Shown here: piece after piece, positions 31,498 through 39,685 of the stretch | Position numbering within the stretch: position 1 is the stretch's first letter | Layout of the letters: every line of letters starts with the position of its first letter | NCBI GenBank assembly: GCA_035544475.1 | Contig: DATKEY010000227.1 | Coordinates: 1-39,685, forward strand | Reading direction: 5' to 3' | From: Candidatus Dormiibacterota bacterium | GTDB taxonomy: Bacteria; Chloroflexota; Dormibacteria; Aeolococcales; Aeolococcaceae | DNA: 39,685 nt | Program-made: the position numbers and the translations under genes | Notes under the pieces: generated by a model | Seen by the model: the letters and a program-made list of their open reading frames with translations, nothing else | Database searches by the model: none | What the model was told of the DNA's origin: nothing

Positions 31498-32748
31498 CTA
31501 CCGGCCGGGCACCCCGTCCTCGGCGGCCGGCGCGGCGTCGGTCGGGAAGGTGAGAGCCTGGACGGCGGCCTCGAGCAGCCCGCGTGGCCGCTCCCCGGGG
31601 GCCGGGTGGGCCCGCACCCGCGCCACGAGCACCGGACCGCGCACCCCGCGGAGGTGGCGGGGGAGCGCCCGCGACCAGCGGAACTCGTCGCCGGTGGCCT
31701 CGCGCACCTCGGCGGTGGCGACGACGTAGCCGGGACGGGCGGCGGCGGTCAGCCGGCTTGCGAGGTTCACCGCGTGCCCGTACCAGTCGGCGCCGACCTC
31801 GACCGCGGGGCCGGAGGCGACGCCGGCGCGGAGCTGGGGGAAGTCCTCGCCCTCGGCGTCGACGGCGGCGACGAGGCGGAGCAGGCAGTCGACGAGGGGA
31901 CCGGCCTCGGGGGAGACGAACATCACCGCGTCGCCGATGGTCTTGACGATCGCCACCTGCGGCCCGGCGAGCTCGTACGCGAGGGTGACCAGGCGTCCCG
32001 CGACCCGTCCGATCTCGTCGGCGTGGACCCGGTTTCCCAGGCGGGTGAAGCCGACCAGGTCGGCGAAGGCGACGCAGATGTCGCGGGCACCGCGCACCCC
32101 GCCGGTCTCGCGCTCGACCCGGCCGACCGCCTCCTGGCGCAGCGCCTCGCGGAGATGGCCGCGGAACTGGTAGATCCCGAGCGCGGTGACGAGGGGGAAG
32201 AACTCGTCGGCGGCCCTCACGTACCGGCGGCTCACGTCGAGCTCGGAGTCGCCGGCGCGGACGAGGACCCGGGCGGCGACCCGGGTGATCGCCCGGGCGA
32301 TGCTCGAGACCCCCTGGCCGGCGACCCGGCAGACGTCGACGATGTCGTCGGCGGGGATCCCCGCCTCGAGAAGCCTGGCCAGAGCGCTCGCAGCGGTGAG
32401 GTCGGCGTTGGTGAGCTCGGACACCGGCGAGAGCCCGGCGGCGCGCCGGAACTCGTCGAGCTGGGCGCGGCTGAGCCCGGTGCGGCGTTCGAGGGTCTCG
32501 TCGGAGTACTGCCGGCCGCCGCGCAGGATCAGGTCGGTGAGCAGGAGCGAGAGCCGGTCGCTCTCGACGGCGTCGAGCAGGTCCTCGCGCTCGACCCCCT
32601 CGTCGAGGAGCTCGCGGATCAGCCGCCGCCGCGCCCGCCGCTCCGCCTCGGTCTCGGCGCCCGCGAGCAGCGGGTCGCCGGGGGCGAGGCGTGCCCGCCG
32701 TCGCGGCGGGCTCGCCTCGGTGTCGTCTCCATCCCCGGGTGCGGTCAT
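31498..32748 (-). CDS. class III adenylate/guanylate cyclase with helical N-terminal domain
   Basis: Track ORF of 416 aa. The ATG overlaps the P450 stop (ATGA at 32745-32748). The catalytic motifs are VAFADLVGFT, KTIGDAVMF, RAGVASGP and GHAVNLASRL. Confidence 0.8.
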   Translation of the reverse strand: MTAPGDGDDTEASPPRRRARLAPGDPLLAGAETEAERRARRRLIRELLDEGVEREDLLDAVESDRLSLLLTDLILRGGRQYSDETLERRTGLSRAQLDEFRRAAGLSPVSELTNADLTAASALARLLEAGIPADDIVDVCRVAGQGVSSIARAITRVAARVLVRAGDSELDVSRRYVRAADEFFPLVTALGIYQFRGHLREALRQEAVGRVERETGGVRGARDICVAFADLVGFTRLGNRVHADEIGRVAGRLVTLAYELAGPQVAIVKTIGDAVMFVSPEAGPLVDCLLRLVAAVDAEGEDFPQLRAGVASGPAVEVGADWYGHAVNLASRLTAAARPGYVVATAEVREATGDEFRWSRALPRHLRGVRGPVLVARVRAHPAPGERPRGLLEAAVQALTFPTDAAPAAEDGVPGR

Positions 32749-34046
32749 GCCCCGATTGTGGGCGACGGGGCTCGACCGGCGACCTGGACGGGCAGCGACA
32801 CCAGGCCGCGGAGCAGGATCCCGGGCCGCCAGCGCAGCTGCTCCGGTGGGACCGCGAGCCGCACGTCCGGGAAGCGCCGCACGAGCTCGCCGATCGCGAT
32901 CCGCCCCTCGAGCCGGGCGAGCGGAGCCCCGAGGCAGTAGTGGGGGCCGAGCCCGAAGGAGAGGTGGCGGTTCTCCGTGCGTCCGAGGTCGAGCCGCTCC
33001 GCGTCGGCGAACTGGGTGCCGTCGGCGTTCGCCGAGGCCACGCCGACGAGCACGAGCGCCCCCCGGGGGATGGTGACCCCGCCGAGGTCGACGTCCTCAC
33101 GTGCGTAGCGCTCGCTCGCGTGGTCGACGGGGCAGGCGAGACGCAGCAGCTCCTCGACGGCGGGGCCGATGAGGCCCGGGTCGTCGCGGAGCCGGGCGAG
33201 CTGGTCGGGGTTGCGGAGCAGCAGCAGCGTCCCCGTGGCGATGAGGTTGACGGTGGTCTCGTAGCCGGCGATGAGCAGGACGAACACCATGGCGAGGAGC
33301 TCGTCGTCGTCGAGCCGATCGCCGCTCGCGTCGGGGGCCGCGAGCCGGCTGATGAGGTCGTCCCGAGGATCGAGGCGCCGCTCGGCGATGAGGCGCCGGA
33401 GCAGGCGCATCATCGCGAGCACGTCGGGGAGCCTCATCAGCATGCGCAGCGTCGGCCGGGTCGACGGACGCGCGCCGAGCAGGGTGGTCACGTAGCGGCG
33501 GAAGCGCATCCGGTCGCGCTCGGACACGCCCATGACCTCGGCGATCACGGTGAGCGGCAGCGGCAGCGCGAAGGCGGCGACGAGGTCGGCACTGGTCGAG
33601 CCGGCGAGCCCGTCGAGGAGCTCGGACGTGAGCGTCACGATCCGCGGCTCGAGCTGGGCCATGTACCGCGGCGCGAAGGTCTCCTGGACGAGGCTCCGCA
33701 GCCGCCGGTGGTCCGCCCCGTCGGCGTCGAGCATCGTCCTCTGCAGCGGCCGCAGCGACCTCGGCGCCCACGGGAGGCGGAGGTCGCCGGGGTCGCGGGC
33801 GTTGCGGACGTTCTTGACGAAGCGCTCGTCGCGAAGGACGAGCGCGGCCTCGGCGTACCTGGTGACGACATACGCGTGGCCGTCGGCGAACGGCGCGGGG
33901 ATGCGCACCACCGGCCCCTGCGCGCGAAGCCGGGCGCAGGCGGGGAGGGGGTCCGCCTTGAACACGGCGGAGTCGATCTCGACCGCCGTCGGGAGGGCGG
34001 TGGTGGTCGGGGTGGGCGTCGTCGTCGTCGTCGCGGTCATCGTCAT
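32745..34046 (-). CDS. cytochrome P450
   Basis: This is the in-frame part of track ORF 32745..34109. ATG 34046 overlaps the tetR stop (ATGA at 34043-34046). The I-helix is LLIAGYETT, the ExxR motif is EELLR, and the heme loop is FGLGPHYCLGAPLA. Confidence 0.9.
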   Translation of the reverse strand: MTMTATTTTTPTPTTTALPTAVEIDSAVFKADPLPACARLRAQGPVVRIPAPFADGHAYVVTRYAEAALVLRDERFVKNVRNARDPGDLRLPWAPRSLRPLQRTMLDADGADHRRLRSLVQETFAPRYMAQLEPRIVTLTSELLDGLAGSTSADLVAAFALPLPLTVIAEVMGVSERDRMRFRRYVTTLLGARPSTRPTLRMLMRLPDVLAMMRLLRRLIAERRLDPRDDLISRLAAPDASGDRLDDDELLAMVFVLLIAGYETTVNLIATGTLLLLRNPDQLARLRDDPGLIGPAVEELLRLACPVDHASERYAREDVDLGGVTIPRGALVLVGVASANADGTQFADAERLDLGRTENRHLSFGLGPHYCLGAPLARLEGRIAIGELVRRFPDVRLAVPPEQLRWRPGILLRGLVSLPVQVAGRAPSPTIGA

Positions 34047-34651
34047 CCCCTCTCTCTCGGCGGCCCCTTGAACCAGAGTCCGGTCAGGAACTCGGGAAGC
34101 TCGTCCCATCGCCGGGCGAGCACCGGCTCCTCGAGGATCGCGAGCATCAGCAGCCCGAGCCCGGTGGCGGCGGCGACCCGGACCAGCAGCTCCGGATCGA
34201 GATCGCCGAGCTCGCCGGCCCTCGCCCGGCGGGCGAGCTCGGCGTCGGCGGCCTCGTACGCCTCGGCGACCCGCTCCGCGAAGGCCTCCCGCAGGTCGGC
34301 GTCGGCCAGGAGCTCGGGGAGCACGGCGGTGAACAGCCCGCGGGTCTCGCGAACCTGCGCGAACCGCCGCGCCATGTACGTCCGTGAGAACTCGCGAAGG
34401 TCCATCCCCGCGTGCTCGGCGAAGTCGTCGCGGCGCTCGGCGAACCGTCCCAGCTGGGCGATGAGCGCGAGCAGCAGCTCCTGCTTGCTCGAGAAGTAGA
34501 GGTAGATGGTGCCGTCGGCGATCCCGGCCTCGCGAGCGATGTCACGCACCGTGGTGCGGTGGTAGCCGCGCTCGGCGAGGACCCGCGCGGCGGCGTCGAG
34601 GATCTGGGTCCGGCGCCGGTCGCCGCGCTCCTCGTCGCCGATGGCCCGCAT
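34043..34651 (-). CDS. TetR/AcrR-family transcriptional regulator
   Basis: The track ORF runs to 34693, but the first codons there (AAG CTT CAT TCA CCT) are AT3-rich and lie inside the palindrome. ATG 34651 is preceded by GAGAGGG, and ATG 34672 is an alternative start. The HTH is [37 protein letters not shown]. Confidence 0.85.
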
Positions 34652-34678
34652 CGCCCGCCCTCTCGTGCCCATCCCAGG

Positions 34679-34696
34679 TGAATGAAGCTTCATTCA
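34679..34696. promoter_or_regulatory. 18-bp perfect palindrome TGAATGAAGCTTCATTCA, candidate TetR operator
   Basis: Read directly from the sequence and equal to its own reverse complement. It is AT-rich in a GC-rich region. It lies in the 127-nt divergent region between tetR (start 34651/34672) and the YtfJ-like gene (34779). Confidence 0.55.
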
Positions 34697-34778
34697 GTCT
34701 ACGTGGACGGGGCTCGCTGGGCAAGGAGCGCGGCGGCGCTACCCTCGACGCCTCGAACCAGTCCGTGGAGGGAGCGCG

Positions 34779-35129
34779 ATGCGCGCGGAGGAGATCCTCG
34801 ACCGGGTGCGCGACACCCTGACCATCCGCCAGGTCTTCGGTGAGCCGTACGAGCGCAACGGGACCCTGATCGTGCCCGTCGCCAGGCTCGTGGGTGGCGG
34901 CGGAGGAGGAGGGGGAGAGGGCAACAGCCCCGCCGAGGGCGGCGGGCGCGGCGGTGGCGGCGGGTTCGGCTTCGAGGCGCGCCCGGTCGGCGCCTACGTC
35001 ATCCGTGGCGACGAGGTGGCGTGGCGGCCCGCCGTCGACGTGACCCGGATCGCCCTCGGCGGGCAGATGGTCGCGATCGTCGCCCTGCTCGTCCTCCGAG
35101 GCGTGATCCGCCGGCTGACCCGGCGCTGA
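34779..35129 (+). CDS. YtfJ/GerW-family (sporulation-protein-like) protein
   Basis: Track ORF of 116 aa with a GGAGGGAG ribosome-binding site. It has the family-like motif FGEPYERNGTLIVPVA followed by a Gly-rich tract (GGGGGGGGEG...GGGRGGGGGFG) and a C-terminal TM helix. Confidence 0.7.
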   Translation: MRAEEILDRVRDTLTIRQVFGEPYERNGTLIVPVARLVGGGGGGGGEGNSPAEGGGRGGGGGFGFEARPVGAYVIRGDEVAWRPAVDVTRIALGGQMVAIVALLVLRGVIRRLTRR

Positions 35130-35132
35130 GGC

Positions 35133-35738
35133 TCAGGAGATCCCGCGGGGCTCGGGGACGAGGTCGGTCGCGGGCATCCACTCGAGCCTCCCGGCCGCCT
35201 CCAGCTCGCGCACCGCGGGCACCGGGTCGGGGTCGCCGTACGCACCGCGGTCGTCCTCCGCCTTCGCAGTGACGTCCGTGAGCCAGAACGACGCCTCGAG
35301 GGCGATGCCGTTCGGGTCGGTGAAGTAGATCGAGTGGATGAAGCCGTGGTCGATCTCCTCGGTCACCTCGACCTCGGCCTCCTGCAGCCGCGCCTGGAGG
35401 GCGAGCAGCGACTCGTGGTCCGGCAGGCTGAACGAGAGGTGGTCGAACTGCAGCGGCTGGCCGACCCGCCATCCCGCCGGCTTGCAGAAGGTCCCGCCGC
35501 CCTTCCACTCGAAGAAGGCGACGGTGTTCCCCGGCGCGATCTCGAAGAAGTAGTGGCGCATCGGTCCCGCCATGAGGGTCGCGACGAGCCGCATGCCGAG
35601 CACGCCGTGGTAGAAGCGGACGGTCGCGTCCATGTCGGGCGTGACGAGCGCGAGGTGGTTGACGCCCTGCCACGCCGGCCGCGGCATGTCCTGGATGGCG
35701 GCGGACGCCGTCCTCGGGGCTCCATCGCTGGCGGCCAT
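35133..35738 (-). CDS. VOC-family (glyoxalase/bleomycin-resistance/extradiol dioxygenase fold) protein
   Basis: Track ORF of 201 aa with a GAGGAGGG ribosome-binding site 6 nt upstream. The motifs are VNHLALVTPDMDATVRFYHGVLGM, FDHLSF and SIYFTDPNGIALE. Confidence 0.8.
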   Translation of the reverse strand: MAASDGAPRTASAAIQDMPRPAWQGVNHLALVTPDMDATVRFYHGVLGMRLVATLMAGPMRHYFFEIAPGNTVAFFEWKGGGTFCKPAGWRVGQPLQFDHLSFSLPDHESLLALQARLQEAEVEVTEEIDHGFIHSIYFTDPNGIALEASFWLTDVTAKAEDDRGAYGDPDPVPAVRELEAAGRLEWMPATDLVPEPRGIS

Positions 35739-35754
35739 CGATGCCCTCCTCTGA

Positions 35755-35946
35755 TCAGGCGACGCCGACGTTCCGGAGGAGTTCCACGAGGCTGTGGGCG
35801 ATCCGCGCCGCCTTGGCGTCGTCGACGGCGGCGGGATCGAGATCCGGGATGAAGCGGCCCACGCCGGCCGGGTCCTCGTCGACCAGGTAGCGCACCAGCG
35901 CGTGACCGATCTCCGCCGCGGTGAAGTCGTCCAGCACGTCCGCCAT
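35755..35946 (-). CDS. small (63 aa) acidic protein, unknown function
   Basis: The track ORF is 35755..35964 (GTG). ATG 35946 (MADVLDD...) is preceded by GGAGGAGAG. GC3 is high. Its stop lies 16 nt upstream of the VOC gene start, so the two are likely co-transcribed. Confidence 0.5.
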   Translation of the reverse strand: MADVLDDFTAAEIGHALVRYLVDEDPAGVGRFIPDLDPAAVDDAKAARIAHSLVELLRNVGVA

Positions 35947-36011
35947 GTCTCTCCTCCGGTGCACGACGCCCGCGGGTGCGCGGGCCCTCGACGACAGGGT
36001 ACTACCCCGCC

Positions 36012-36182: not shown

Positions 36183-38165
36183 GTGTTGAGGACCGGCCGG
36201 GGGGGGTGGATCCCTCGCCGGGTGGCGCTCGCCGCCGTCACCACGCTCGTGCTGACGGCGGTGTCCCCCGGCCCGTCGCTGCCGAGTCCGGATCGAGCGT
36301 ACGCCGCGTTCAACTGTGCGCTCCCGCGCTGCACCCCGCCGCTCCTCGACCACGGCGGTCCCGTGGTGCACGACCCGCGCGTCTACCTCGTCTTCTGGGG
36401 ACACCTCTGGTCCGGCGATCCCGGCGGCGTGGTCTCGGCGGAACAACGGCTGTTCCGGGGGCTCGCAGGCGCGGGCGGAACGTACAACGACATCCTCACG
36501 GACTACCACGACGATCGCGACTACGTGCACATCGACACGGTGCTCGCCGGCAGCTGGACGGACACGGCCGACCCCGCCGGGACGATCGATTTCCCGCAGC
36601 TGGCCGGAGAGGCGGCGCACGCAAGCGCGGTGAACGGCTGGTCGAACAGCTCGGAGACCGTGTACTTCGTTCTCACTCAGTCGGGTACTCCGACTCCGTA
36701 CCGGAGGTCGGGCACGTGCGGGTATCACGTTCCCTACACGGTCTCCGGTGCCACCTACCTCATCGCCACGGCGCTGTGGCCTTCGGATCAGGCCGGGTGC
36801 CTGAACGGGTTCGGCGGCGGCAACACGGCCGACGCGGTCACCGTGGCGTCATCCCACGAGTACGCGGAGACGGTGACCGACCCGATGCTCGACGCCTGGA
36901 GGACGGTCGACCCGGCGCCGGTGGAGATCGGTGACCTCTGCGAAGGGCTGTTGCCCGCGTTCGTGCGGATTCCGGGCGTGGGTTCCGTCCAGTTCCTGTA
37001 CGACGACGCCACGGGCCGCTGCGATTCCGGGCTCACGAGCCGCCAGGTCGTGCCGCCGAGGCGTGAGGGCGCCCTGAGCAGATACTCCGGGTCCGCCGGC
37101 CACTGGACCACATCCGGGTCGGTCACGTCGGGATTCACCGTCGAGTCGTCGCTCGGGTTCTCGCTGCAGAGCGCGTCCTCGCTCACGACCGCGGTCTACG
37201 AGTGCCGGCCGGCGGTGGGGGCCGGCCACTTCACGACCACGAGCAGCCTGTGCGAGGGCACGGTCAACATCCCGCTGCGGCTCGAGGGCTGGCTCTTCAC
37301 GTCGCCTCCGCCCAGCCCCCTGACCGGCACCGCCGTCTATCGGTGCCGTGCAGGCATCGATCACTTCGACAGCACGGCGTCCGGATGCGAGGGACAGATC
37401 GTCGAGGGCCTGCTCGGATATGCGCTGACCGAGGCGACGCTGGGCCGCTACACCGGCGCCGGATATCACCAGGTCAGCTCCGGTCAGGTGAACGTCCCCT
37501 ACCGCGCCGAGGAGCCTCTGGGGACGGTCATGTCCGCACCGACCGGCGGCGCACCGGTGAGGCCGATCTACAACTGCCTGGTCGGCGGCGGCCCGGGGTA
37601 CATGACGTCGACCGCATCCACCTGCGAGGGGACGCAGACCATCGGGCTGAGCGGCTACGTGTACACCACGCCTCCCCCGGGCGCGTCCGTCCTCCCGCTC
37701 TGGCGGTGCCGAGCCGGTGCTGATCACTTCGTGTCGAATGACCCCGGGTGCGAAGGCCAGGTCGCGGAATATCAGCTGGGCTACATCAGGCAGTCGGTCG
37801 GTCTCGCTCGGTACGCGGCTCCCGGCGACCACTGGTCGACGACCACCGGCATGGACGACGCGCACTCCTGGGACTCGATGCTCGGGTACCTGTTCGCCGC
37901 CGATCCACCCGACTCGACCGCACCCCTCTACGCGTGCATCACCGCCGCCGGCGGACACTTCACATCTCCCGACCCGGGATGCGAGGGGAACACCCGGCTG
38001 GCGCTCGACGGCTACGTGTACACGACGCCGCAGCCTGGGACGGCCGCGCTCTACCGCTGCGTGCTCGGGCTCGACCACTTCGACACCCTCAGCTCGGGAT
38101 GCGAGGACTCCGGCGGCACGAACGAGCTGACGCTCGGATACGTCGAGACTGGCGACGAAGGGTGA
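36183..38165 (+). CDS. secreted 660-aa protein: EXORDIUM/PHI-1-like N-terminal domain + nine Cys-patterned lectin/propeller-like repeats
   Basis: Track ORF with a GTG start and a signal peptide ending in AYA. Residues ~55-280 align by eye block-by-block to plant EXORDIUM: HGGPVVHDPRVYLVFWG; TVYFVLTQSG...GTCGYH; ADAVTVASSHEYAETVTDP; EIGDLCEG. Residues ~296-656 form a 3 x 122-aa super-repeat. Both domain names are from memory and unverified. Confidence 0.55.
   Translation: MLRTGRGGWIPRRVALAAVTTLVLTAVSPGPSLPSPDRAYAAFNCALPRCTPPLLDHGGPVVHDPRVYLVFWGHLWSGDPGGVVSAEQRLFRGLAGAGGTYNDILTDYHDDRDYVHIDTVLAGSWTDTADPAGTIDFPQLAGEAAHASAVNGWSNSSETVYFVLTQSGTPTPYRRSGTCGYHVPYTVSGATYLIATALWPSDQAGCLNGFGGGNTADAVTVASSHEYAETVTDPMLDAWRTVDPAPVEIGDLCEGLLPAFVRIPGVGSVQFLYDDATGRCDSGLTSRQVVPPRREGALSRYSGSAGHWTTSGSVTSGFTVESSLGFSLQSASSLTTAVYECRPAVGAGHFTTTSSLCEGTVNIPLRLEGWLFTSPPPSPLTGTAVYRCRAGIDHFDSTASGCEGQIVEGLLGYALTEATLGRYTGAGYHQVSSGQVNVPYRAEEPLGTVMSAPTGGAPVRPIYNCLVGGGPGYMTSTASTCEGTQTIGLSGYVYTTPPPGASVLPLWRCRAGADHFVSNDPGCEGQVAEYQLGYIRQSVGLARYAAPGDHWSTTTGMDDAHSWDSMLGYLFAADPPDSTAPLYACITAAGGHFTSPDPGCEGNTRLALDGYVYTTPQPGTAALYRCVLGLDHFDTLSSGCEDSGGTNELTLGYVETGDEG
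37068..38150 (+). repeat. in-frame tandem array inside the 660-aa CDS: 3 super-repeats of ~366 nt, each made of 3 sub-repeats (a-b-c)
   Basis: The R-Y anchor of the 'a' units sits at residues 299-300, 421-422 and 543-544, an exact 122-aa period. The 'b' units are xYxC...GHFTS...CEG......GYVYTTPxPG with Cys-Cys spacing of 16 (341/357, 465/481, 584/600). The 'c' units are LYRC..G.DHF.S...GCE(G/D)......LGY with spacing of 14 (388/402, 509/523, 626/640). Confidence 0.8.
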
Positions 38166-38782
38166 CGGGGCGGCCCCGCCGGCGCATACTGCGTGCGGCT
38201 GTGAGGTCTGCGCGCACTGGGGTCGTCCTTGGCATCCTGCTGGTGGGTGTCGCTCTGGCGGTCACCCTCGGCCTGTTGCTGCCCCATCGGTCCGCGCCCC
38301 CCGGCCGGGGACCGGCTTCCTCCGCGACGACCACGACATCGTCGGGGAACGCCTCCGCGCCGCCGTCCTCGGCTGCGCAGAGCGCCGTCTCCGCGCCACC
38401 GTCCTCTGCGTCCTCGACGGCCTCCCAGGCCGCTCCTCCGCCGGTCGCGGCGCCGGCGACACCATCGCCGACGCTTGCCCTGACCGAGGCGCAGGAGGGC
38501 CAGACCTTCACCCTGACGATGGGCACGGTCGTGAGCTTCAGCGTCAGGTCCGACGGACGCAACCGCTGGGGGCCGCCCCGCGCGCAGGACGAGACCATTC
38601 TCGCCCCGATGGTGTCGACCGCGGACTCCGACGGGAACGCCTCCGGGCGGTTCAGGGCGTCCAGGCGGGGAACCACCTATGTCCAGATGTTTCCCGCGAA
38701 CGGGTGCCCGACCCCGGCGTCCGGGGGCACGCCGATCCCCTGCATGCTCGGCAAGCTGGTCTGGAGGTTCGTGGTGTCCTGA
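38162..38782 (+). CDS. membrane-anchored Ser/Pro/Ala-rich protein with small beta-rich C-terminal domain, unknown function
   Basis: This is the in-frame C-terminal 206 aa of track ORF 37748..38782. GTG 38162 overlaps the upstream TGA (GTGA at 38162-38165). It has a basic N-terminus, a TM helix (VVLGILLVGVALAVTLGLLL), a low-complexity linker of about 70 aa, and a globular domain of about 95 aa with two Cys (NGCPTPASGGTPIPC). Confidence 0.5.
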   Translation: MTGRPRRRILRAAVRSARTGVVLGILLVGVALAVTLGLLLPHRSAPPGRGPASSATTTTSSGNASAPPSSAAQSAVSAPPSSASSTASQAAPPPVAAPATPSPTLALTEAQEGQTFTLTMGTVVSFSVRSDGRNRWGPPRAQDETILAPMVSTADSDGNASGRFRASRRGTTYVQMFPANGCPTPASGGTPIPCMLGKLVWRFVVS

Positions 38783-38905: not shown

Positions 38906-39226
38906 ATGAGCACCCTGGTCACCAACGAGCTCTTTGCCCAGCCCGGTCGTGGGGACGATGTCGCCAACCTGCTGTTGGAGATCCTGGGCGAGAGCCTTCA
39001 GTGGGATGGCTGCGAGACCATCCGGATCGTGCGGGATCAGGACGACCCCGATCACGTGGCCGGCTTCACGGAATGGACCGAGCGCCGCAACTTCGACGAC
39101 TACCTCGCGTGGCGGACGGAGCGCGGCTTCAGCGACACCTTCCTGGCCATGATGACCCGGCCGTTCGTCATCCACTACTACGACACGGCGTTCTTCGACC
39201 AGGGCGTCGCCGCACGCCGGCGCTGA
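38906..39226 (+). CDS. ABM-domain (antibiotic-biosynthesis/quinol monooxygenase-like) protein
   Basis: Track ORF of 106 aa with a GAAAGGAA ribosome-binding site. The ferredoxin-like ABM pattern is present (LFAQPGRGDDVANLLLEIL...C..IRIVRDQDDPDHVAGFTEW..R..FDDYLAW). Confidence 0.7.
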   Translation: MSTLVTNELFAQPGRGDDVANLLLEILGESLQWDGCETIRIVRDQDDPDHVAGFTEWTERRNFDDYLAWRTERGFSDTFLAMMTRPFVIHYYDTAFFDQGVAARRR

Positions 39227-39250
39227 CGGCCTGGGGTCGACCGCCGCCTC

Positions 39251-39281
39251 GGGCCCCCGGCCGCGCGGCGGTCGGGGGCCC
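39251..39281. terminator. strong GC hairpin between convergent genes (bidirectional terminator candidate)
   Basis: GGGCCCCCGGCCGC-GCG-GCGGTCGGGGGCCC forms a 14-bp stem with one G-U pair and a 3-nt loop. It lies between the ABM gene stop (39226) and the membrane-protein gene stop (39356). Confidence 0.5.
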
Positions 39282-39355
39282 CGTCTCCACACCCGGAGGT
39301 GTTGCGGCCGGAGCTGACATCAATACCGAGCGACCCTGCGCTCGCGAGGGCTGGC

Positions 39356-39685
39356 CTATGGGATGGTGTGCCCGGTCGCCAGGATCCAGGCGGGCACCCA
39401 GAACGTGTAGACGGCGGTGCCGATCAGGATGGTTCCCAGCGCTCGTGGCTGGAACTTCCCGTACGTCGTCGCTGCGATGCAGAGGAAGGTGACCGCCCAG
39501 AAGATGAGGATCGACCGGAACATCCAGCCCCCATCGAAGAACTGCCAGTAGGCGAGGGGAGCGAGCGCCACCGCGGCCGACACGTTCCCCAGCGGGCGCA
39601 GGTCCAGTCCGAGGATCTCGGTGACGCCGAGCAGGGTGAAGAAGGCCGCGTAGAAGATGATCAGGCCGGCGAGCAGGACGGAGGC
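39356..39685 (-). CDS. integral membrane protein, unknown function (5' end outside window)
   Basis: The track ORF is 39356..39583, but the frame stays open to the window edge (…ASVLLAGLIIFYAAFFTLLGVTEILGLDLRPLGN-VSAAVALAPL…). It is hydrophobic throughout. Confidence 0.5.
   Translation of the reverse strand, partial: ASVLLAGLIIFYAAFFTLLGVTEILGLDLRPLGNVSAAVALAPLAYWQFFDGGWMFRSILIFWAVTFLCIAATTYGKFQPRALGTILIGTAVYTFWVPAWILATGHTIP

Follow-up and report, generated by a model that had tools for sequence, protein, structure and literature searches.

A 39,685-nucleotide contig from a Candidatus Dormiibacterota bacterium (GenBank assembly GCA_035544475.1, contig DATKEY010000227.1, forward strand; the whole stretch is called the window here) carries a gene for a 660-residue protein at positions 36183 to 38165. 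The protein consists of a signal peptide, a domain of about 254 residues that belongs to the PHI-1/EXORDIUM superfamily, and three tandem, cysteine-bearing, divergent DUF5648 domains, and its gene overlaps a second gene for a small membrane-anchored protein. An earlier note, made by reading the sequence alone, had described a secreted fusion of an EXORDIUM-like domain to an array of cysteine-patterned repeats, and the analyses below support both that observation and its interpretation. The features of the two genes are as follows.

36183..38165, plus strand: complete coding sequence of 660 codons and a stop, with a GTG start (list of open reading frames, GC content at third codon positions (GC3), near-identical protein on contig L002)
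36183..36305, plus strand: probable signal peptide, residues 1-41, with n-region RTGRGGWIPRR, h-region VALAAVTTLVLTAV, and A-Y-A followed by A42 (reading of the translation)
36306..37067, plus strand: PHI-1/EXORDIUM-superfamily domain, residues 42-295, an α/β fold with H-E-x-x-E on a long helix (profile search, hhalign, AlphaFold, Foldseek)
36717..36728, plus strand: C179-G-Y-H182 motif, where predicted strand β4 begins; C179 and H182 are also present in all 14 aligned PHI-1/EXO sequences
36855..36884, plus strand: H225-E226-Y-A-E229-T-V-T-D233-P234, candidate motif for metal binding and catalysis, located where the long helix ends C-terminally (conservation, model)
36924..36941, plus strand: E248-I-G-D251-L-C253 motif (conservation; an identical E-I-(A/G)-D-L-C block occurs in EXL3/5/7)
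37071..37436, plus strand: DUF5648-like domain 1, residues 297-418, units 1a/1b/1c, Cys 341/357 and 388/402 (repeat alignment, homology to P0043)
37437..37799, plus strand: DUF5648-like domain 2, residues 419-539, Cys 465/481 and 509/523 (repeat alignment)
37800..38162, plus strand: DUF5648-like domain 3, residues 540-660, Cys 585/600 and 626/640 (repeat alignment)
38162..38782, plus strand: downstream gene of 206 codons, whose product has an Arg-rich N-terminus, one transmembrane helix, a Ser/Pro/Ala-rich linker and a C-terminal domain of about 100 residues (start/stop overlap, GC3 of 0.87)

The window is GC-rich (about 70-76% GC). Since GC3 is 0.88 in the frame of the 36183-38165 gene versus 0.63 in an overlapping antisense reading frame, the former was taken as the coding one. 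The start codon is ambiguous between the GTG at 36183 and a start at 36222. The second was chosen by a metagenome gene caller and yields a 647-residue form (P0001) without a basic n-region, whereas the GTG supplies such a region, as in the homologue P0002. In the translation from the GTG, arginines stand at positions 3, 6, 12 and 13, a hydrophobic core of 14 residues spans positions 14-27, and A39-Y-A41 precedes A42. This N-terminus reads as a signal peptide, and the protein as a secreted one; hydrophobic leaders also open the sequences of its relatives. The stretch R12-R13-V-A-L could pass for a weak twin-arginine motif. The protein contains 18 cysteines, six in its N-terminal half and 12, arranged as six pairs, in its C-terminal half.

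We compared the N-terminal domain with genuine PHI-1/EXO sequences taken from Additional file 2 of PMC2661892, 14 of which were aligned (set A6). The profile of the bacterial family matched this alignment in hhalign with a probability of 99.5% and an E value of 2.5e-23 over 223 collinear columns, which cover the whole domain. The hidden Markov model (HMM) of the bacterial family gave the Solibacter PHI-1 protein 91.5 bits, Arabidopsis EXL5 73 bits and EXO only 14.9 bits, and BLASTP aligned the window domain with Solibacter PHI-1 at an E value of 2e-9. A shuffle control used an EXO-like proxy sequence, which the Pfam Phi_1 model scores at 419 bits; the bacterial profile gave this proxy 18.2 bits, whereas the best of 2000 shuffles reached 5.2 bits. 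In the common HMM alignment and in hhalign, the PHI-1/EXO residues W/Y-G after strand 1, Y108, D127, C-G-x-H, C206, (D/N)-P and E...C are all kept. Because hhalign, HMMER and BLASTP agree on genuine sequences, homology of the N-terminal domain to PHI-1/EXORDIUM is established at the superfamily level, and the likeness that the earlier note had seen holds over residues ~40-295. The four blocks it had quoted are present, in columns that the profile-profile alignment pairs with PHI-1/EXO. It had named the right family; the strongest likeness, however, is to the EXL3/5/7 clade, with its H-E-x-x-E...E-I-G-D-L-C-E-G block, and not to the EXL2/EXO sequences it had quoted.

Membership in the Pfam Phi_1 family (PF04674) as now defined is not established. 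The model scored the full protein at 13.7 bits (E = 0.04) and the domain alone at 16 bits (E = 0.0079), below its threshold of 25 bits, so the Pfam check proposed in the earlier note, taken by itself, would have refuted the likeness. The family consensus gave zero matches in Pfam, which indicates that scans with single members or with a consensus understate the link to Phi_1. Even below threshold, matches were limited to 4 of 89 relatives in one set and 7 of 32 in another.

EXO and PHI-1 are abundant plant cell-wall proteins, and EXO is required for normal cell expansion (PMC2661892). The window domain is homologous over about 250 residues to this family (PF04674, IPR006766), nearest to the EXL3/EXL5/EXL7 clade and the Solibacter usitatus protein. 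Like the family at large it is secreted or extracellular and has the conserved cysteines, CGxH, Y108 and D127, and with EXL3/5/7 and Solibacter it shares the block H-E-x-x-E...(D/N)-P...W...E-I-(G/A)-D-L-C-E-G. It differs in being just ~25-27% identical to the nearest genuine members, in lacking two segments, the G-rich one at the C-terminus and the plant-specific insert that lies between C206 and the HExxE helix, and in being followed by targeting modules, which no plant sequence from the PMC2661892 supplement has.

Conservation was counted over 114 diverse relatives at 23-51% identity. H225, E226, E229 and C179 are present in all of them (114/114), and W72-G73 also counts as invariant; near-invariant are D127, H182 and P234 (113/114), E143 and D233 (112/114), E248 and D251 (113/113) and C253 (112/113). 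In set A6, the EXL5/EXL7-type plant proteins and the Solibacter protein keep Y108, D127, C-G-x-H, H-E-x-x-E, (N/D)-P, W and E-I-(G/A)-D-L-C, and by eye Arabidopsis EXL3 also shows the H-E-x-x-E...E-I-(G/A)-D-L-C block. From EXO and PHI-1 proper the H-E-x-x-E site is wholly absent: hhalign places S-L-L-A-G of EXO opposite H-E-Y-A-E, and L-E-A-A-S-A-C opposite E-I-G-D-L-C, and the raw sequences of EXL1, EXL2, EXL4 and tobacco PHI-1 resemble EXO at the motif positions. The plant family divides sharply into two types: the motifs are kept in EXL3/5/7-type proteins of Arabidopsis, rice, poplar, grape, spruce and moss and in Solibacter, and missing from EXO, EXL1, EXL2, EXL4 and PHI-1. This distribution suggests that the plant family comprises an active clade and a pseudoenzyme clade.

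In 2009, the Solibacter protein was the sole bacterial homologue then known (PMC2661892). A profile search of 1.84 billion representative sequences now returned at least 2109 relatives at E<=1e-3, 622 of them at E<=1e-10, mainly from Actinomycetota, with some from Dormibacterota, Chloroflexota and Proteobacteria and a few from archaea. None of the relatives scanned had an above-threshold Pfam or NCBIfam match to the N-terminal domain; Phi_1 was the only recurring match, always weak, and no NCBIfam model matched the domain, its consensus or its relatives. The domain therefore has a large bacterial, mostly actinobacterial branch that no Pfam or NCBIfam model reaches at threshold. Its fusion partners are mostly wall- or glycan-binding modules and include LGFP (19 of 89), ricin-type lectin, CWB2, CBM4_9, fucose lectin, fn3, NPCBM_assoc, He_PIG Ig-like and FG-GAP domains.

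Two side observations concern gene neighbours within this branch. In Streptacidiphilus fuscans (L061:4039-6047), a domain-only member lies directly downstream of a gene for a Peptidase_A4 glutamic peptidase on the same strand, a single instance. In three Proteobacterial members (L038 and L049 from Ferrovum metagenome-assembled genomes, L052 from a Burkholderiales one), the stop codon is followed after 11-35 nt by a common open reading frame of 142-159 codons, whose product starts with a leader resembling a signal or lipoprotein peptide and contains the conserved segment '...LFSVDWSI.EGE.GGRIE...'. This reading frame, which may be a clade-specific partner, shows no sequence relation to the downstream gene of the window.

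The N-terminal domain was modelled with AlphaFold from the 114-sequence alignment, with a mean predicted local distance difference test score (pLDDT) of 92.8 and a predicted template-modelling score (pTM) of 0.92. The modelled order of elements is β-α-α-β-α-β-β(hairpin)β, a short helix and a long helix (domain residues 176-193); H-E-x-x-E stands at the C-terminal end of the long helix and is followed by a D-P turn. When this model was compared with the PDB by Foldseek, nearly all of the top 40 matches were metzincin catalytic domains (among them ADAM22, ADAM33, VAP1, ADAM8, TACE, fragilysin, ulilysin), with probabilities up to 0.96 and ~180 columns aligned to catalytic domains of ~200 residues. 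Catalytic domains of the adamalysin/ADAM type (for example 1IAG, 1R54 and 4DD8), the best structural matches, are likewise extracellular and disulfide-stabilised. The modelled succession of strands and helices is compatible with theirs, and both would close with a long helix that bears H-E-x-x-[metal ligand] and leads into an Asp turn. The window domain differs from them in its HExxE motif, in lacking the HExxHxxGxxH/D extension and the conserved Met-turn, and in showing no detectable sequence similarity; conversely, the invariant CGxH, D127, E143, E248 and D251 of its family have no metzincin counterpart. The predicted resemblance to the metzincin catalytic fold is weak though consistent, and suggestive but not decisive. 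Searches of the PDB by sequence, with the protein and with the family profile, gave nothing at E<=10, a viral structure library gave noise only, and a link between EXORDIUM and zincins was not found in the literature.

The C-terminal 364 residues align end to end as three super-repeats of 122, 121 and 121 residues, starting at 297/298, 419/420 and 540/541. They are pairwise 36-41% identical (BLASTP E values of 7e-29, 2e-25 and 2e-22), and each is built of three units of ~40 residues, unit a without cysteine and units b and c with two cysteines each. The pairs are 341/357, 388/402, 465/481, 509/523, 585/600 and 626/640, at spacings of 16, 14, 16, 14, 15 and 14. The regular array of the earlier note was thus recovered, with lengths of 122, 121 and 121 in place of its three times 122, and its strictly alternating 16/14 spacing holds for five of the six pairs, the fifth being 15. 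Across 25 close homologues, units b and c keep their Y-x-C...C-E-G cysteines, and there may be one disulfide per blade, as the earlier note had proposed from the spacing.

The DUF5648 model (PF18885) does not match the window protein directly in Pfam even at E<=1, and its gathering threshold of 25 bits is not reached. Residues 296-660, searched alone, nevertheless returned 92 homologues. One of them, P0043, matches the window repeats at an E value of 1e-12 over its residues 347-595 and carries, within that segment, an above-threshold DUF5648 match (E = 7.3e-15, residues 472-574); another, P0028, has a weak match (E = 0.0025). Given the homology to P0043, and since the 134 positions of PF18885 correspond to about one super-repeat, we conclude that the protein carries three divergent DUF5648 domains, in agreement with the DUF5648-like character that the earlier note had seen. 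DUF5648 in GH70 enzymes is a (β3α)3 domain of three β-β-α-β subdomains (PMC11299179), and another study describes it as a β-α propeller of three blades with an implied role in glycan recognition, a fold also adopted by the O-antigen-targeting C-terminal domains of two Bacteroidales toxins, BSAP-2 and BSAP-3 (bioRxiv 10.1101/2025.01.06.631476). In an endolysin survey it was handled as a putative cell-wall-binding domain. For the window protein, the best reading of the repeats is three independent domains, each a putative three-bladed β-α propeller, and not one larger, nine-bladed propeller. The only model that covers them, a full-length AlphaFold model built from just two full-length sequences, had a pLDDT of 28.6 and was unusable.

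The super-repeats share with DUF5648 a length of ~120-134 residues, three units of ~40 residues, the Y-R-x...D-H-F...G-Y pattern, a C-terminal accessory place on extracellular enzymes, and the transitive homology through P0043 and P0028. They differ by the cysteine pair (Y-x-C...C-E-G) in each of units b and c, a motif outside the pattern that we take to be canonical for DUF5648, YRxYN...DHFYT. Unit a has moreover degenerated to R-Y...H-W, and three domains stand in tandem, whereas most relatives of the module have a single copy of ~115-125 residues at the C-terminus. Among the 92 homologues the module adjoins CarboxypepD_reg, CHAP, Peptidase_M23, Trypsin, CAP and DUF5722 domains and the ectodomains of Ser/Thr kinases. 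This cysteine-bearing subfamily is likely to be a glycan-targeting module of Actinomycetota.

A word-indexed search of 5.8 billion proteins gave three matches to the window protein. P0001, called from start 36222 on the ENA contig L002, is near-identical; P0002, a metagenomic protein on a 2-kb JGI contig, is a full-length homologue at 51% identity; P0003 is a repeat-only protein. Each half is common on its own, but their fusion is thus very rare: in those 5.8 billion proteins it occurs in exact form only in the window protein and in the 51%-identical one.

The stop codon of the 660-residue gene (TGA, 38163-38165) overlaps a GTG at 38162 (GTGA) that is in frame with the reading frame ending at 38782. 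With this overlap and a GC3 of 0.87, the sequence bears out the coupled downstream gene that the earlier note had mentioned. Its 206-residue product matched no family in Pfam, NCBIfam or the PDB. An NCBIfam match to 'BamI metzincin inhibitor' (E = 0.036) was rejected as compositional because it falls in the transmembrane helix and low-complexity linker, and a match to the ColH collagen-binding domain (E = 0.1) was not significant. P0095, the nearest relative in the outgroup, is followed 14 nt downstream by a gene of analogous transmembrane-anchored architecture. Conservation of the gene pair, which the earlier note had suggested checking, proved narrow: beyond close relatives of the window gene, a scan of 51 wider-family loci turned up no such partner, which is conserved only within this clade, and the neighbourhoods of three genome-borne relatives were heterogeneous, with no common partner.

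In a related genome of metagenomic origin, the region syntenic to window 36183-38288 (L003:7252-9078) holds a decayed orthologue, called as open reading frames of 100 and 315 codons. The segments corresponding to 36522-36707 (residues ~114-183, including D127, E143, C179 and H182) and 37118-37201 are missing, the frame changes, and of the downstream gene only ~37 codons are left before an IS240-type DDE transposase. The flanking genes of the window (32745-35964 and 38906-39583) are conserved in L002 and L003, and none is obviously tied in function to the 660-residue protein. They are as follows.

Further upstream: GGDEF protein and adenylate-cyclase-like protein
32745-34109, minus strand: P450
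34043-34693, minus strand: TetR regulator
34779-35129, plus strand: YtfJ-like protein
35133-35738, minus strand: glyoxalase-fold protein
35755-35964, minus strand: open reading frame of 63-69 codons
38906-39226, plus strand: ABM monooxygenase
Within 38906-39583, minus strand: AmiS/UreI-like membrane protein

We regard it as about an even bet that the secreted protein acts as a metal-dependent hydrolase targeted to glycans, and that it may be a zincin-like peptidase. The N-terminal domain would be the catalytic part, with its active centre on the long helix that bears the invariant H225-E226-x-x-E229. As in the HExxH site of zincins, the histidine and a glutamate would ligate a metal and E226 would act as general base, with possible further contributions from D233, from H182 of CGxH on the adjacent strand, and from D127, E143, E248 and D251. 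Among known folds, the predicted one comes nearest to metzincin catalytic domains of the adamalysin/ADAM type, which would make a peptidase the most likely chemistry. The three DUF5648-like domains may tether the enzyme to a surface glycan, either of its own or a neighbour's cell envelope or of an extracellular polysaccharide, in line with the apparent role of the module in CHAP, M23, trypsin, GH25, GH70 and BSAP proteins. The downstream protein, presumably membrane-anchored with a small extracytoplasmic domain, might hold the enzyme, inhibit it or protect against it, which is the most speculative step.

Several observations weigh against this proposal. The motif is H-E-x-x-E in all 114 relatives and not the zincin HExxH; it runs on as x-x-T-D-P with neither a Met-turn methionine nor an HExxHxxGxxH/D extension, and no Met or Gly downstream of it is conserved at >=90%. 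A described HExxE zincin family was not found in the literature; mentions of 'HEXXE' in papers on M35 and CLCA1 appear to be slips for HEXXH. The Foldseek scores are weak (E values of 1e-2 to 0.5, TM-scores of 0.33-0.41), parallel strands carry the invariant W72-G73 and D127 at their C-terminal ends, an arrangement atypical of a zincin cleft, and no sequence match to a peptidase or hydrolase family was present in Pfam, NCBIfam or the PDB. Plant proteins of the EXO/PHI-1 type function without the motif, and therefore the fold can act non-catalytically. As to the locus, the downstream partner was absent from the 51 wider-family loci scanned, and the decay of the syntenic L003 orthologue indicates that the gene pair is dispensable.

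Some of these points fit other explanations. The domain might be metal-dependent and yet no peptidase, acting instead as a hydrolase or lyase on glycans or esters of the wall or of extracellular polysaccharide, with DUF5648 as carbohydrate-binding modules and the metzincin likeness reflecting a generic α/β sandwich. The family's fusion partners, as classic carbohydrate-binding modules (ricin, CBM4_9, fucose lectin, NPCBM_assoc, DUF5648), suit glycan-active enzymes equally well and so count against a peptidase; the plant relatives are cell-wall proteins tied to cell expansion (PMC2661892, PMC8792609), the invariant strand-end acids D127, E143, E248 and D251 would suit a glycan-active site, and the structural scores are too weak to fix the chemistry. 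However, no sequence similarity to glycoside hydrolase, polysaccharide lyase or carbohydrate esterase families was seen, the top structural matches are almost purely metallopeptidases with no glycan-active family among them, and a long helix that bears H-E-x-x-E and leads into a D-P turn most resembles a zincin site; we consider this explanation possible but rather doubtful. A purely binding or signalling role, as is usually assumed for EXORDIUM, would make the protein an adhesin- or lectin-like one at the cell surface, with its conserved His, Glu and Asp residues serving as a ligand-binding or structural metal site. It is in keeping with the clear phenotypes of EXO/PHI-1-type proteins that lack H-E-x-x-E, with the richness of the protein in binding modules, and with the fact that no biochemical or enzymatic activity is reported for any family member in PMC2661892 or PMC8792609. 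The invariance of H, E and E at such low identity, together with six near-invariant charged residues, points instead to a catalytic centre and not a binding surface, and the many alternative targeting modules are typical of a catalytic head, which leaves a non-catalytic role unlikely.

The JGI and UniRef name 'serine protease', borne by P0247, P0248, P0267, P0330 and many ricin-fused relatives, is unsupported for want of a conserved serine: even at the most promising position, S224, only 53 of 114 relatives have Ser. Neither a serine-protease match in Pfam or NCBIfam nor such a fold among the structural matches was found. The name looks like a propagated misannotation, and a serine protease is effectively refuted, with hardly any probability left to it. 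The gene pair might also be an antagonistic exoenzyme with its immunity protein, the enzyme attacking the envelopes of competitors through DUF5648, as in BSAP, and the membrane-anchored partner protecting the producer. The GTGA overlap couples the two genes, the partner beside P0095 is analogous, BSAP-2 and BSAP-3 use their DUF5648 C-terminal domains against O-antigen, lytic enzymes of the CHAP, M23 and GH25 types carry the repeat module, and rare family members carry SUKH-4 or Imm27 immunity domains. Nevertheless, the partner has no recognisable inhibitor or immunity family and is missing from the wider-family loci with their heterogeneous neighbourhoods, and the joint decay of orthologue and partner in L003 shows no sign of an addiction-like constraint; such antagonism seems to us improbable.

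Apart from its domains, the window protein is an ordinary accessory exoprotein whose orthologue is decaying in a sister genome. It adds a cysteine-stabilised subfamily to DUF5648, and it exposes a large, uncurated bacterial sister family, so that the single bacterial homologue of 2009 has become at least 2109 representatives without a Pfam or NCBIfam model. In its widest and quite tentative form, which we would not expect to hold in full, the hypothesis is that the PHI-1/EXORDIUM superfamily may be an unrecognised clan of H-E-x-x-E zincin-like metallohydrolases. The window protein, more than 2000 bacterial clusters and EXL3/5/7 would all be active enzymes with cell-wall components as substrates, with EXO and PHI-1 proper as their pseudoenzyme descendants, and the locus would encode a glycan-targeted peptidase and a co-translated, membrane-anchored inhibitor or immunity protein. 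The family offers an invariant H-E-x-x-E with supporting acidic and histidine residues, a predicted fold that looks like a zincin, and the fusion pattern of a catalytic head with interchangeable glycan and wall anchors, and thereby a testable biochemical hypothesis for EXORDIUM. Since the motif residues persist in EXL3/5/7 but not in EXO, EXL2 or PHI-1, direct experiments are possible in both bacteria and plants.

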